Shown piece by piece: positions 1,291-5,917 of a stretch of DNA of 10,537 nt. The translations under genes and the position numbers were made by a program. How positions within the stretch are numbered: position 1 is the stretch's first letter; every line of letters starts with the position of its first letter. Source of the stretch: a virus (Duplodnaviria; Heunggongvirae; Uroviricota; Caudoviricetes); IMG/VR virus record IMGVR_UViG_2671180608_000012. One strand, 5' to 3'. Under the pieces are notes generated by a model that did not search any database, was not told the DNA's origin, and saw only the letters and a list, made by a program, of their open reading frames with translations.

Positions 1291-1380
1291 TCATATTTTT
1301 CACCTCTTTAAGCGTGTTGTACGTAAATTCTATTTTTCAGTGTGGGTATTAGCTTTACAGATTTCACGTAGCACACATAC

Positions 1381-1422
1381 AAAAAAAGGGAGAGCTACCG
1401 ATGTCACTCGATAATCTCTCCC
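1381..1422 (-). terminator. Rho-independent terminator after the 69-aa gene
   Basis: On the minus strand: GGGAGAG (rc of 1416-1422), 21-nt loop, CTCTCCC (rc of 1388-1394), then TTTTTTT (rc of 1381-1387). Lies between the stop of the 69-aa ORF and the start of the tape-measure-like gene. Confidence 0.5.
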
Positions 1423-1446
1423 CGTATTTACCCAACCAATTCTTTT

Positions 1447-1678: not shown

Positions 1679-2389
1679 TCAAACAGCCTTGCTATACTTC
1701 TGAGAAATCTTCGTTAACTGCTCAATATCAGCCATCAAAGCAATCTTCTTCTGCGACTCATATTCACTAACAAGTTCTTTCATAGTATCAAGTTCTTTTT
1801 TAAGCTTTTGCTTTAACTTATCCAGTTTACCGGAATAATGCTTAGTCAAATTAGCTTCAGCTAACTGAAGAATCTCTTCATCTGTTTTATCAGTCATCAG
1901 AATAAATTGACCAGAACCCCTTAATGCTTGTCTGACATCAATTAACCGGAACCCTTCAGGGATACTTTGAAGAACTTTAGGAACGTCTTCAATCGCTGTA
2001 CCAAAACCATCATTAAAGTTTCCTTCATAATAGATAAACGGGTTTGACTTAATCTCGTAAGCAATATCATATTCTGAAGGTTTCGAGGTTTCTTCGAAGT
2101 TCTTAACAGCATCGTAAGCGACATCAAGTCTAAGACGCTGTGATTTTAAAGCTGGGTAATATTCACGCTCAAGCTCAAATAGTGCTTCAGTTTTGCAGAT
2201 ATCAGGCATTTCTTGAGGCTCAGGAGACACAAAGGAAATTACCTTTGGTGACATCTTTAGCTCTTGCTCAAGCTCAATGCGCTTGTCATGCTCTTGACGC
2301 TGAATAGTATGTAGCGGATGTTCACCCTGTGGTGACCAGTCTCCGAAGCTATCAACCTTTTTACCGTTAATATATAAATCGTTTGTCAT
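1679..2389 (-). CDS. Hypothetical protein (236 aa), cassette copy A large protein; paralogue of 4386..4997
   Basis: ATG at 2387-2389 with GAGGA RBS. Shares colinear motifs with the 203-aa ORF (PEPxEmP; NDGFGTAIEDVPKVLQSIPEG vs RDGWGYDPVEIGKVIADLPEG; following R-rich segment; coiled-coil tail). No known family recognised. Confidence 0.65.
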   Translation of the reverse strand: MTNDLYINGKKVDSFGDWSPQGEHPLHTIQRQEHDKRIELEQELKMSPKVISFVSPEPQEMPDICKTEALFELEREYYPALKSQRLRLDVAYDAVKNFEETSKPSEYDIAYEIKSNPFIYYEGNFNDGFGTAIEDVPKVLQSIPEGFRLIDVRQALRGSGQFILMTDKTDEEILQLAEANLTKHYSGKLDKLKQKLKKELDTMKELVSEYESQKKIALMADIEQLTKISQKYSKAV

Positions 2390-2477
2390 TATAATTTCCT
2401 CTAAGTGTGGTTATTTCTTAATAGAGCACCTTCAACGCCAATACACTTAGAAGATGACTTAACGATTTATTAAAGAT

Positions 2478-2518
2478 GCTCTATTAAGAAAAGCCCTAAA
2501 CATAATCTGTGAAGGGCT
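2478..2518 (-). terminator. Second (distal) intrinsic terminator of cassette copy A
   Basis: Hairpin GCCCT (2493-2497) / AGGGC (2513-2517) with inner 3-bp stem; on the minus strand followed by TTTTCTTAAT. Near-identical to the single terminator hairpin of copy B. Confidence 0.45.
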
Positions 2519-2580
2519 TTGGAGGTTTGCTTATAACGTTAACGAAGTTTCAGGAAAACTTTCTTTAAAAGCTCTGTTTA

Positions 2581-2617
2581 AAAACTCTTAAAGAAAGCCC
2601 TAACTCATGATTAGGGC
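2581..2617 (-). terminator. First (proximal) intrinsic terminator of cassette copy A
   Basis: Perfect 7-bp stem GCCCTAA (2597-2603) / TTAGGGC (2611-2617) with 7-nt loop; on the minus strand followed by TTTCTTTAAGAGTTTTT. Confidence 0.5.
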
Positions 2618-2786: not shown

Positions 2787-2815
2787 ATTATGTCATGCTC
2801 AAGGTTGTTTGTCAA
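2787..2815 (-). promoter_or_regulatory. Sigma70-like promoter TTGACA-17-CATAAT (minus strand), copy A
   Basis: -35 TTGACA = rc of 2810-2815; -10 CATAAT = rc of 2787-2792; 17-nt spacer. Both hexamers are identical in copy B while the spacer differs at 4 positions. Confidence 0.55.
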
Positions 2816-3122: not shown

Positions 3123-3134
3123 NNNNNNNNNNNN
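3123..3134. other. Run of 12 N (assembly gap or masked bases) at the IS boundary
   Basis: Directly visible in the sequence. Confidence 1.
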
Positions 3135-3177
3135 TGAGGTGTACTGGCAATAGCGGACACTACCATTTGTTCTTTTT

Positions 3178-3996
3178 TTAAGCAGCCATCTGATGATATT
3201 TTTCCCTGAAGGCTGCCGGGGAGATATTCCCCAGACGAGAGTGACGACGCTGACGATTGTAGAAAATCTCAATGTATTCCCGTATTACTGAGATGGCTTC
3301 ATCCCGGTTATTAAAACGATAGTGGCTCAGGCTCTCATTTTTCAGCGTTCCCCAGAAGCTTTCCATCGGAGCGTTGTCGTAACAGTTACCTTTACGCGAC
3401 ATTGATGTTTTCAGACCAGACTGCTCCTGTATGACCCGGTAATCGTATGCGCAGTACTGTGAACCTCGATCAGAGTGGTGGATTAGCCCGGCAGGTGGGC
3501 GCTGGCTCCTGAGCGCCATAAACAGGGCTTTACCTGTCAGCTCTTTTGTCATGCGCTCTCCCATGGCGTAGCCGACAATTTCGCACGTATAAACATCTTT
3601 GATGCCAGCGAGGTACAACCATCCCTCCTGTGTGGCAACATACGTCAGGTCCGCCACCCAGACCTGATTTGGTGCTGTAGGAGCGAACGTCTGGTTCAGC
3701 AGATTTGGCGCAACTGGCAGATTGTGGTTCGAGTTCGTAGTCGCTCTGAACTTGCGTTTCTGCTTACAGCGTAGCCTTAGCTCCTTACGAAGACGTGCCA
3801 GTCGGTCACGACCAACGATGATGCCATTCTCTGCCAGCTCCGTCTGGAGCCGCCGGGTTCCATATGTTTCGCGAGTGCGGATATGTGCCACCTTAATCTC
3901 CAGTTTTAGCCGCTCATCACTTTGTTTTCTGTCTGAGGGTTCATGCTGTACCCAGTTGTAATAACCGCTCCTGGATACACCAAATACCTGACACAT
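3178..3996 (-). CDS. IS3-family transposase OrfB (DDE catalytic domain)
   Basis: Motifs typical of IS3-family OrfB: NQVWVADLTYV, HHSDRGSQY, CYDNAPMESFW, YNRQRRHSRLG. Coordinates are from the first Met; the orfB frame actually extends upstream to the frameshift site near 4077-4083 and is probably expressed as an OrfAB fusion. Confidence 0.85.
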   Translation of the reverse strand: MCQVFGVSRSGYYNWVQHEPSDRKQSDERLKLEIKVAHIRTRETYGTRRLQTELAENGIIVGRDRLARLRKELRLRCKQKRKFRATTNSNHNLPVAPNLLNQTFAPTAPNQVWVADLTYVATQEGWLYLAGIKDVYTCEIVGYAMGERMTKELTGKALFMALRSQRPPAGLIHHSDRGSQYCAYDYRVIQEQSGLKTSMSRKGNCYDNAPMESFWGTLKNESLSHYRFNNRDEAISVIREYIEIFYNRQRRHSRLGNISPAAFREKYHQMAA

Positions 3997-4031
3997 CGCT
4001 TCAATGGGAAATTGTTGTCGCCATTGTTCGA

Positions 4032-4334
4032 TTAACGCGTATTTTTCAGCGACTCCTGTGCAAAATACGCTGTTGCTTTTTTTAATATATCTCGCTCAAG
4101 GCGAGCTTCATTTAACGCCTTACGCAGTTGCAGAATTTCAGATTCCAGTTCAGCCACCGTGCGGGAACCAGGAGTACCGAGCCCTTTTCTGGCGGCGGTA
4201 ACCCATTGTCCTAAAGTGCCTTCAGGAAGAGATAATCGGGAAGCGCCTTCACTGATCGAAAGTTGATTTTCAGGAACCGTTCTGACAGCTTCGGCTTTGA
4301 ACTCTTTAGAGTAACGTTGGGTTTTTCTGCTCAT
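4032..4334 (-). CDS. IS3-family transposase OrfA (HTH plus leucine-zipper region)
   Basis: ATG at 4332-4334 preceded by GAAGGAG; 100 aa ending ...ILKKATAYFAQESLKNTR, resembling IS3-family OrfA; slippery heptamer lies at the LKK codons. Confidence 0.85.
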   Translation of the reverse strand: MSRKTQRYSKEFKAEAVRTVPENQLSISEGASRLSLPEGTLGQWVTAARKGLGTPGSRTVAELESEILQLRKALNEARLERDILKKATAYFAQESLKNTR

Positions 4335-4385
4335 TATTAGCTCCTTCTGATGCCATTCTATTTCAGGAAGGAGTGTCCGTTAAAC

Positions 4386-4997
4386 TCAGGCTACCTCACT
4401 AATCAGCTTAGCCAGTCTTGATTTCAGCAAATTAATCTCATTTTCTCTTGCTTTCATCAGTTTCTCTTTGGCAATTTCTTCAAGCTCAGCTTGTGATTTA
4501 TCAGCAACAATTAGAGACAGTCGATGTGGTGCTCTGACAGCTCTTTCTGTACGAACAACTCTTTGACCTTCTGGTAAATCTGCAATCACTTTACCAATCT
4601 CTACAGGGTCATACCCCCAACCGTCACGGTCTAGTCGAGAGAAATAAGCATAAGAATTGGTTTGAAGCTCCATCGAAATAACCATTTCGTCAATTTCGTC
4701 TTCAAGCTTGGACTGAATTTTCTCGTAAACACTTCTCATTGCTTCTTGAGAGTCTTTAATAGCTTGGAAATATCGGCGTTGTAGCTTCAACTTCAAATCA
4801 AGTTCACACCGTTCGTTCATAGAAAAATCAATTTCAACTCTTGGAATCTCGAGTGGTTCTGGTGGAATATATGGACCTTTATTTACTTCGTGTGATTCCC
4901 GCCAAGCTCTATCAAAAGATTCACGCAAAGTTAATTCGTGAATATCAAGTGCACTTGGTCTGTGTTCGATAAGCATTTCATGTTCATTTCTAATCAT
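4386..4997 (-). CDS. Hypothetical protein (203 aa), cassette copy B large protein; paralogue of 1679..2389; 3' end runs into the IS
   Basis: ATG at 4995-4997 with AAGGGG RBS. The last three codons (EVA) and the stop are encoded inside the IS terminal repeat (IS ends at 4398). About 35 aa shorter at the C-terminus than the 236-aa paralogue. Confidence 0.6.
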   Translation of the reverse strand: MIRNEHEMLIEHRPSALDIHELTLRESFDRAWRESHEVNKGPYIPPEPLEIPRVEIDFSMNERCELDLKLKLQRRYFQAIKDSQEAMRSVYEKIQSKLEDEIDEMVISMELQTNSYAYFSRLDRDGWGYDPVEIGKVIADLPEGQRVVRTERAVRAPHRLSLIVADKSQAELEEIAKEKLMKARENEINLLKSRLAKLISEVA

Positions 4998-5100
4998 TCG
5001 TTCACCCCTTAGTTTATTTGTTATTTCAATTTATAGAAGCACACTCAGCAATCAGAGGTGAAGAGTCTGACTGAACAAGAACCTGCCAAGTGTGCTTTTA

Positions 5101-5136
5101 AAAACTGAAAAAGCCCTAAACATTTCTGTGAAGGGC
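5101..5136 (-). terminator. Intrinsic terminator of cassette copy B
   Basis: Hairpin GCCCT (5113-5117) / AGGGC (5132-5136) with inner 3-bp stem; on the minus strand followed by TTTTTCAGTTTT (rc of 5101-5112). Confidence 0.5.
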
Positions 5137-5290
5137 AAAGGATTCAATAATGAATGAACAAGAGTACTTTTTGAGATAGCCTCTCAGACTAACCTGAAAG
5201 GCCATGACGAAAAGCATTGCACCTTTCCAACTCAGAATATCCATCCATCGGATTATTGAAAGAAAAATAAGAGAGAATTGCTCTCCCATA
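5104..5290 (-). ncRNA. Candidate small RNA or terminated 5' leader (copy B), ~185 nt
   Basis: Conserved promoter upstream and intrinsic terminator downstream; ~90% identical to copy A; 5'-proximal hairpin GAGAG-caatt-CTCTC. The 69-aa ORF reported here (5116..5325) is not conserved as a frame in copy A. Confidence 0.3.
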
Positions 5291-5296
5291 ATTAAA

Positions 5297-5325
5297 ATTA
5301 TGCCATGCTTAAGGTTATTTGTCAA
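5297..5325 (-). promoter_or_regulatory. Sigma70-like promoter TTGACA-17-CATAAT (minus strand), copy B
   Basis: -35 = rc of 5320-5325; -10 = rc of 5297-5302; 17-nt spacer; hexamers identical to copy A. Confidence 0.55.
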
Positions 5326-5426
5326 CAGCTTTTTAACAGGTTGATAACATCAATTCTTATTTACCGCATTGTTAATAATACAACCAACAAATAAGCCAAG
5401 CAACGTCCAAGCAATTATTAAACCCA

Positions 5427-5753
5427 TTAGTGAACCCTCACAGAATCCGTCACCAGAATATTATCACTGTACAGGATTGTCACAGCACCTTTCAAAAATT
5501 GCTCTGGGGAAATACTGTATATGTTCGTTTGCTCGATAACCAATCTTTTCATGTTGCTGTCTGTAATTGGTAGCATCATTCGAGGCTCGTTAAACTCCAC
5601 CGACTGAATAAAGTCAGAGATGTTTTCTACATTATCAGCCATCAGCTTTAGTAATTTATCAAAATTAATTGCGATACCTGCATCAATGAAGCTTTGCACC
5701 ATCATAGCAGTGTCGTTATCAACCATAATTTGCATTGGGTAATTATTCATTTT
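5427..5753 (-). CDS. Small acidic protein, cassette copy B (108 aa)
   Basis: Start placed at the internal ATG (5751-5753) preceded by AGGAG, not at the longer ORF-track start. Net acidic (about 14 D/E against 7 K/R). C-terminal 71 aa paralogous to copy A. No known family recognised. Confidence 0.6.
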   Translation of the reverse strand, partial: KMNNYPMQIMVDNDTAMMVQSFIDAGIAINFDKLLKLMADNVENISDFIQSVEFNEPRMMLPITDSNMKRLVIEQTNIYSISPEQFLKGAVTILYSDNILVTDSVRVH

Positions 5754-5917
5754 TAAATCTCCTATGAAACACACCTCAGACCTCTTAAAATAGCCATTCT
5801 GAGGCCAGTAACCATGCGGGTTACAGAGGGAGTTGCACTGGCTGGTAAGGTAATTTATCAAATTAAGGTGCAACTCTGCCTGTAAAGTGCATTCTACCGT
5901 TTCTTAGATGGTTATTT

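Follow-up and report, generated by a model that had tools for sequence, protein, structure and literature searches.

The phage lambda N leader and the E. coli adhE 5' UTR are RNase III-processed leaders that mask a ribosome-binding site (RBS). In the immI region of P1/P7, the c4 antisense RNA and its icd/ant target lie on one transcript (Rfam C4), and in the IncI-alpha/IncB rep mRNAs (repZ/repA) a pseudoknot between a hairpin loop and an SD-adjacent segment activates translation, while an antisense RNA blocks it. Two operon layouts also resemble the locus described here: the lambdoid late operon, in which PR' and the short 6S/StxS transcript are followed by the tR' terminator and the late genes, and the type III toxin-antitoxin systems, which are laid out as promoter, RNA, terminator and protein gene.

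We analyzed a 10,537-nt stretch of DNA from a virus of the Caudoviricetes (IMG/VR record IMGVR_UViG_2671180608_000012), hereafter the window, in which long-range inverted repeats lie in the leader of a gene for a 236-aa protein. We infer that this leader may act as a cis-acting translational lock, in which an SD-sequestering pseudoknot is built on a probable RNase III-type hairpin, and we put the probability of this reading at about 0.5. Like the lambda N and adhE leaders, the element is a long 5'-leader hairpin that follows a control region and precedes the first gene, with an RBS that would be occluded by leader structure and with double-stranded RNA of at least two turns that suits RNase III, whose cleavage would alter translation. 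It differs from them in that the SD lies outside the long helix and pairs with the apical loop in a crossing topology, and in that the terminator U-tract is itself the 5' arm of the helix; we found no sequence similarity to them, and cleavage is here a prediction. As in the P1/P7 c4 system, an upstream structured segment of the transcript has loops complementary to a downstream RBS, and loop and target vary between elements but match within each, giving specificity types. Unlike c4, the leader does not match the C4 model, and its hairpin follows the terminator, so it would be made one to one with its target. The IncI-alpha/IncB rep mRNAs share with it a hairpin loop that pairs with a downstream RBS segment in a long-range crossing interaction controlling initiation, whereas here the pairing covers the SD itself, repression is expected, and neither a leader peptide nor an antisense RNA was found.

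At the level of the operon, a strong promoter is followed by a short RNA ending at an intrinsic terminator, with downstream genes reached by read-through, as in the lambdoid late operon and the type III layout; unlike the lambdoid late operon, the locus shows no similarity to lambdoid sequences in the phage collection. A ToxIN-like type III toxin-antitoxin system was considered and rejected, as the RNA has no tandem array and the protein is not ToxN-like: the 236-aa protein and its 203-aa homologue match nothing in Pfam, PADLOC or NCBIfam, and the structural model of the former is a helical coiled coil. To our knowledge, neither of these two layouts is known to include a post-terminator hairpin with an anti-SD loop. 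When the whole window, and both leaders with lax filters, were compared with Rfam 15, no family reached its gathering threshold; the best scores came from pre-miRNA models (19-26 bits against thresholds of 56-230), and none of the bacterial cis-regulatory and phage families, including C4, leaders and thermometers, came near threshold. A literature search for the island that carries the locus, for the RNA sequence and for yecE islands with a serine recombinase returned nothing relevant. Sequestration of an SD within a leader is a familiar principle, which makes the surprise moderate, but this particular build, with a terminator U-tract as the 5' arm of a two-to-three-turn helix and an anti-SD at its tip, appears to be undescribed.

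Organization of the region upstream of the 236-aa gene

Every sizeable ORF in the ORF list of the window lies on the minus strand. The segment at 2397-2491, which includes the interval 2401-2490 where the repeats were first reported, is therefore the 5' leader of the 236-aa gene and is read from high to low coordinates. This gene (1679-2389, minus strand; start codon at 2387-2389) heads a module that continues with a 69-aa, a tape-measure and a Dit-like gene. A second copy of the arrangement precedes a 203-aa ORF (4386-4997, minus strand; start codon at 4995-4997), which is a homologue of the 236-aa gene (25% identical). We refer to the two as copy A and copy B, respectively. Both have the same order of promoter, conserved block of ~190 nt, terminator(s), repeat-bearing leader, SD and ATG; copy B has one terminator and copy A has two.

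Transcription of copy A would start from a sigma-70 promoter at 2787-2815 (minus strand), with TTGACA, a 17-nt spacer, CATAAT and an upstream TG (11/12 matches), which is kept in homologous loci; ahead of the 236-aa gene there is no other good promoter. In copy B, a consensus scan places a promoter with the same elements (TTGACA, 17 nt, CATAAT, upstream TG) at 5297-5325 on the minus strand. The same kind of scan found no minus-strand promoter-like site between the last terminator and the 236-aa gene, so this gene should be reached only by read-through from the upstream unit. One candidate promoter on the opposite strand (2367-2395, plus), which would have given an antisense RNA, was dropped because it depends on bases in the start-codon region that vary among loci.

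The conserved block that follows the promoter encodes a structured non-coding RNA (2597-2786 in copy A and 5113-5296 in copy B, both on the minus strand). It is ~92% identical between the two copies, while its flanks diverge, and a 2-nt indel between the copies rules out coding potential. The RNA of copy A folds with z = -4.1. Among its hairpins, GAAAGGU-GCAAU-GCUUUUC is invariant, and covariation is seen in two more, one of them the 5' hairpin; in a set of more than 90 loci, the RNA is mosaic. It matches no Rfam family and may be the more interesting object of the locus, as a regulator, an antitermination element or an sRNA. Duplex prediction between this RNA and the leader, applied to long sequences, revealed no conserved pairing site.

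In copy A the non-coding RNA ends in a first intrinsic terminator (2597-2617), and a conserved second one follows at 2490-2520 (minus strand; AAAGCCCU...AGGGCUUU, then UUUUCUU). Copy B has a single terminator hairpin at 5113-5136, followed by UUUUUC. All three combine a G+C-rich hairpin with a U-tract. Directly after the first terminator of copy A lies a further hairpin (2559-2597, minus strand; arms of 13 nt, 92% complementary) whose 5' arm is the U-tract of that terminator, a design that it shares with the long helix of the leader described below. As separate observations, three loci, L001 among them, carry the last terminator hairpin inverted as a whole, and in ~12 loci (e.g. L004 and L036) the terminator loop is enlarged by an insertion of ~30 nt that contains an SD and the mini-ORF MNIRITYV, which stops in the 3' arm of the terminator stem. 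A leader peptide translated from the terminator loop was ruled out, since the length of the U-tract varies and the reading frame is not kept.

The leader forms a long helix that begins in the terminator U-tract

Directly after the terminator hairpin, the minus-strand RNA of both copies folds into a long hairpin, whose stem we call helix A. In copy A its arms lie at 2470-2491 (5' arm, which includes the terminator U-tract) and 2414-2435 (3' arm), as identified from the inverted repeat, the fold and covariation, and they are 22 nt long and 91% complementary. In copy B, inverted-repeat pairing and folding place the arms at 5084-5110 (5' arm, beginning in the terminator U-tract) and 5024-5050 (3' arm), 27 nt long and 81% complementary. 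The predicted folds contain 22 bp of helix A in copy A and 25 bp with two 1x1 mismatches in copy B. Folding of both leaders had been proposed as a check on the repeats, and both form stable helices: the copy A RNA reaches -49.7 kcal/mol (z = -7.3; 0/200 shuffles as good) and the copy B RNA -45.6 kcal/mol (z = -3.7; 1/200 shuffles as good).

Two of the three repeat pairs from which the analysis started are parts of these helices. The 14-mer TTCTTAATAGAGCA of copy A is a real repeat with its partner at 2477-2490, and such a match arose in 0/200 shuffles, although it lies at 2415-2428 rather than at 2416-2429 as originally given. The copy B pair (GCACACT at 5039-5045, in the 3' arm, with AGTGTGC at 5089-5095, in the 5' arm) had been located exactly. 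As a bare 7-mer pair it is not significant, since 61/200 shuffles have one; it is the G+C-rich core of a helix of ~25 bp. In RNA from the minus strand, which is the transcribed one, the inverted repeats thus fold into a hairpin. Near-perfect dsRNA spanning at least two helical turns, a range into which 22-30 bp falls, is in general a substrate for RNase III of E. coli, and helix A provides the ~20 bp or more of largely uninterrupted dsRNA that the enzyme calls for. We therefore regard it as a probable RNase III-type hairpin and a candidate substrate.

Helix A is maintained by compensatory changes in homologous loci

The region is present in the chromosome of 474/5,426 complete E. coli genomes (~9%), and metagenomes and IMG/VR contributed ~100 further loci when searched with a 20-mer DNA pattern taken from the conserved RNA. 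A protein-pattern scan of genome contigs had returned a single locus, and megablast/blastn of the region against phage and plasmid collections returned no match. The 117 occurrences of the DNA pattern included 107 with a downstream ORF of the 236-aa family, of which 103 were analyzed, representing 83 distinct leaders. These leaders fall into five sequence types (T1 to T5) with a common architecture. The types are shuffled relative both to the variant of the upstream RNA and to the N-terminus of the downstream ORF, indicating that the region is mosaic.

Long helices are nearly universal in this set: the longest MFE helix has at least 21 pairs (21-32) in 81 of 82 leaders analyzed and 19 pairs in the remaining one, and in most of them it begins 1-5 nt past the terminator stem. 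In a MAFFT alignment of 24 distinct leaders, 95% of the cells of helix A are standard pairs, compared with 35-50% when the partner is slid by 1-3 columns. Both sides change in 14/27 pairs, and the covariation score was reached by 0/500 shuffles, with the caveat that the variation stems from about five lineages and not from hundreds of independent events. RNAalifold, unprompted, predicts the same helix, with compensatory changes in 10/19 pairs. Only a four-pair AGCA/UGCU core is invariant, and single positions run through U·G, C-G and U-A. The earlier note had suspected a structure kept in place while its sequence changes, and had proposed covariation in homologues as a check; this is what we find, as the five leader types in ~100 loci keep the helix by compensatory changes. 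The leader element thereby offers a testable case in which covariation preserves an RNA structure although one sequence replaces another across at least five types.

The pairs also discriminate between strands. G·U cells make up 11% of helix A and outnumber A·C cells by 69 to 23. Read as minus-strand RNA, 95% of cells pair, compared with 87.5% as plus-strand RNA and 84% when only Watson-Crick pairs are allowed, as in DNA. Judged from the aligned sequences, this asymmetry points to RNA of the transcribed strand as the structured molecule, rather than to an operator or cruciform in DNA.

The tip of helix A is complementary to the SD region

In the order of the RNA, the terminator hairpin is followed by the U-tract with which helix A begins its 5' arm, ~34 nt of apical sequence with a pyrimidine-rich tip, the 3' arm, a short A-rich linker and a segment that is complementary to the tip and contains the SD, with the AUG 7-10 nt further on. 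In copy A, the anti-SD segment (UCUUCUAAGUGU, 2443-2454, minus strand) caps helix A, where the MFE fold has its apical loop, and is complementary to the SD region (ACACUUAGAGGA, 2397-2408, minus strand) over 12 nt (92%). In copy B, the apical loop contains UUCACCUCU (5054-5062, minus strand), which is complementary to the SD region AGGGGUGAA (5001-5009, minus strand) over 9 nt (89%). Both pairings include the GAGG/GGGG of the SD, and the MFE hairpin of every type places the centre of the anti-SD within its terminal loop, where a segment that is to nucleate pairing would be expected.

The copy A pairing corresponds to the second repeat pair originally reported, of which the 8-mer CTAAGTGT was correctly placed at 2401-2408, while its complement lies at 2443-2450 and not at 2445-2452; the 8-mer pair by itself is only mildly unusual, since 7/200 shuffles had at least two such matches. 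The repeats had been described as lying between the terminator and the RBS, which is correct for the minus strand, except that the second pair contains the SD itself and is not merely upstream of it. They had also been called mutually exclusive or pseudoknot-like. The two pairings interleave (A5', B1, A3', B2 in RNA order) without sharing a nucleotide, so the topology is that of a pseudoknot; they use different bases, and at nucleotide level the suggested exclusivity is incorrect. Each of the two interleaved helices has separate support: helix A from covariation and helix B, between loop and SD, from type-specific complementarity.

A pyrimidine-rich loop will always be somewhat complementary to a purine-rich SD. 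The predicted duplex of the apical region with the sequence that runs from helix A to the AUG has a mean energy of -17.5 kcal/mol, compared with -7.9 ± 2.6 kcal/mol when the loop is shuffled and -9.3 ± 3.3 kcal/mol when it is paired with windows of the locus's own ORF, ~3.5% of which pair with the loop as well as the SD stretch does. By the shuffled-loop test, the complementarity to the SD within the same leader thus exceeds chance. It is also kept in homologues despite sequence change, in three loop solutions (CUCUUCUAAG(U), UCUUCUAAGUGU and UUCACCUCU/C), each of which fits its own SD flank, and this adds to the case for control at the RNA level. The complementarity runs 5-8 nt past the SD core; in T1 and T2 it reaches 5' of the SD (CUUAGAAGAG, ACACUUAGAGGA), and in T3 to T5 it reaches 3' of it (AGAGGUGAA, CGAGGUGAAU). 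The matrix of cross-type energies is best on its diagonal (T1/T1, -18.6, against about -10 for T1 with T3/4). In locus L005, ACGCUUAG pairs with CUAAGUGU through a U·G replacement, which fits pairing between RNA segments.

Nested folding (ViennaRNA) cannot hold both helices and shows only nested alternatives. For the full leader it gives helix A with an open SD; when the leader lacks the 5' arm of this helix, loop and SD pair in the MFE fold, and the probability that the sequence just upstream of the start codon (the SD in copy A) is unpaired drops in both copies (A, 0.91 to 0.32; B, 0.77 to 0.30). Helix A is joined to the SD by a linker of 5-6 nt in T2 and in many T1 leaders and of 12-20 nt in other types. 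Besides the loop, most loci have a second anti-SD-like motif (CCUCC, CCUUC or UUCUUCACC) just 5' of the last terminator; its position in the window is 2521-2525 (CCUCC in the RNA, GGAGG in the plus strand), and both copies have it paired to the SD in their MFE folds.

A proposed translational lock and its alternatives

These features suggest the following model. The strong promoter would produce the structured non-coding RNA, and most transcripts should stop at the one or two intrinsic terminators. In RNA that reads through, the terminator U-tract and the next ~20 nt would pair with sequence ~35 nt downstream to give a helix A of 22-30 bp, whose tip would present the pyrimidine-rich anti-SD. 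This segment would then pair with the SD region a few nucleotides past helix A, giving a pseudoknot-type fold that would hide the RBS of the 236-aa gene and leave leaky read-through RNA untranslated. Helix A would form first during transcription and the SD would then pair with the exposed loop; we consider the pseudoknot the more likely native state. Silencing of this kind might also open the untranslated mRNA to Rho or to decay. Cleavage by RNase III would part the mRNA from the non-coding RNA and leave its SD without the anti-SD loop. Processing, or a factor arising upon phage infection, could thus open the lock or destroy the mRNA. RNase III is constitutive, so its cleavage alone does not explain a switch. 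If the model holds, terminator and hidden RBS would together form a compact double lock on the tail-protein module of the island, and the leader would mark where to seek the on-signal of the island, possibly phage infection, RNase III activity or an antiterminator.

Against the lock, nested folding predicts an open SD once helix A is formed, so that repression requires the pseudoknot, which would be sterically strained in those types with a 5-6-nt linker. In one alternative, helix A would be an activator of translation that licenses the gene by alternative folding: in RNA that has truly read through the terminator, the rigid helix A would hold the anti-SD away and keep the SD open, and the anti-SD would close the SD when the 5' arm is cut off or occupied, for example by RNase E cleavage or by Hfq at the U-tract. 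Nested thermodynamic folding yields exactly these two states, and the short linkers of T2 and many T1 leaders disfavour a pseudoknot across 22-27 bp. The pairings share no nucleotides, however, and exclusivity is not forced; the longer linkers of the other types would permit a pseudoknot, and a consensus scan found neither a promoter nor a processing site for a 5'-truncated RNA. On balance we consider activation by helix A unlikely.

Alternatively, the hairpin could be an element for processing or stability only, either an RNase III site or a 3'-protective hairpin that parts the non-coding RNA from the mRNA, with the complementarity of loop and SD incidental. The length and near-perfection of helix A would suit a generic dsRNA substrate, the only Rfam similarities, all below threshold, are to eukaryotic pre-miRNA hairpins, which are RNase III-class substrates, and a U-tract hairpin also follows the first terminator, where there is no SD nearby. 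An incidental match would not be expected to run past the SD core, on a side that differs by type, and to track the cognate leader type as this one does, which makes a purely processing role, in our estimate, quite unlikely.

We further speculate that the anti-SD hairpin sets the specificity of an immunity or antisense system based on RNA, in which an apical stem-loop of ~60 nt excised by RNase III would act in cis and in trans on the first RBS of the tail module, as c4 does in P1/P7, and the CUUCUAAG-class and UUCACCUC-class leaders would be immunity groups. We hold this extension to be quite unlikely; if it were true, the sequence types would let different islands coexist or exclude one another in an undescribed satellite-like family.

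Finally, the earlier note's alternative to RNA-level control was an operator with paralogue-specific recognition. A site acting in DNA with type-specific recognition, be it an operator bound by a repressor that is dimeric or forms loops, a cruciform, or a site of recombination or packaging, finds no support in these data and is very improbable, for although type-specific inverted repeats could co-evolve with a DNA-binding protein, and the island encodes several small uncharacterised proteins and an RHH-like protein (96 aa, by our own reading of its sequence), the G·U cells of helix A would be mismatches in DNA, the pair asymmetry favours the transcribed strand instead of the strand-neutral Watson-Crick symmetry of an operator, helix positions move through U·G as well as C-G and U-A, arms of 22-27 nt lying ~34 nt apart are unlike operator half-sites, and the element lies downstream of promoter and terminators.

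The island and the origin of the two copies

The host element is an island of ~11.4 kb inserted in yecE (L002, 14617-25980; L001, 15345-26230; the whole window). Its genes include those for a large serine recombinase, a Dit-like tail protein, a tape-measure protein, a replication initiator with iterons and a Dam-type methylase. Along its full length, the tape-measure protein shares ~30% identity with the tape-measure proteins of virulent Felix O1-like myophages. The island is satellite-like, widespread in E. coli and uncharacterised, and several of its small proteins belong to no family in Pfam, PHROGs, NCBIfam or PADLOC. The same four collections gave no match that would suggest a function for the 236-aa protein, and tblastn against phages found no relative. 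Its AlphaFold model (pLDDT 73) is a helical coiled coil with only generic coiled-coil structural matches, and the name 'transposase' given to it by NCBI is without support.

Copy B is separated from copy A by an IS3-family element, presumably IS600-like (~3135-4398, with ORFs at 4032-4334 and 3178-3996 and a masked N run at 3123-3134 at its left end). The insertion has replaced the 203-aa ORF at its 3' end, so that the final residues of this ORF are encoded by the IS end, and it also truncates the gene that precedes copy A. Two copies occur in just one of 116 sources, the window, and A and B are therefore better seen as allelic variants brought together. From their sequences they look like variants of one mosaic module joined at the IS3-family insertion, rather than co-evolved paralogues, which leaves the paralogue-specific recognition once suggested for them doubtful.

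Other features of the window

Two short ORFs on the minus strand encode hydrophobic peptides of 21 and 25 aa (MELVIICFVLIGMIAGASIKV and MGLIIAWTLLGLFVGCIINNAVNKN; 2840-2905 and 5350-5427, respectively). Their starts overlap the stop codon of an upstream gene of ~107 aa (TAATG), and they end just before the promoter of the non-coding RNA.

Before the tape-measure (TMP) gene, at 1291-1446 (minus strand), a strong terminator (1387-1423) is directly followed by an irregular long hairpin (1304-1386). Its outer pairs join the U-tract to the AAAGAG of the TMP SD; the leader folds with z = -3.1 and is mosaic among loci. Pairing between a terminator U-tract and the downstream SD was considered as an operon-wide rule and dropped, as the pairing in the TMP leader could be trivial complementarity between poly-U and a purine-rich sequence.

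Iteron-like direct repeats (TGACATTTTGTCACT) are found at 7725-7761, with two exact copies 22 nt apart and a third, degenerate copy nearby. They lie directly downstream of an HTH ORF of the replication-initiator type, which appears to be split (129 + 124 aa) relative to the 306 aa of L002. Direct repeats of ~80 nt, paired at 9297-9376/9513-9592 (78% identical) and 9751-9831/9875-9955 (96%), flank masked N runs, and the latter pair duplicates the 3' end of a gene for a Hin-like serine invertase (9805-10479). A 22-nt direct repeat (GTGCATTCTACCGTT...) occurs at 5887-5908, upstream of a 108-aa gene, and again at 10500-10521, past the invertase gene, and may be a recombination or att-type site.
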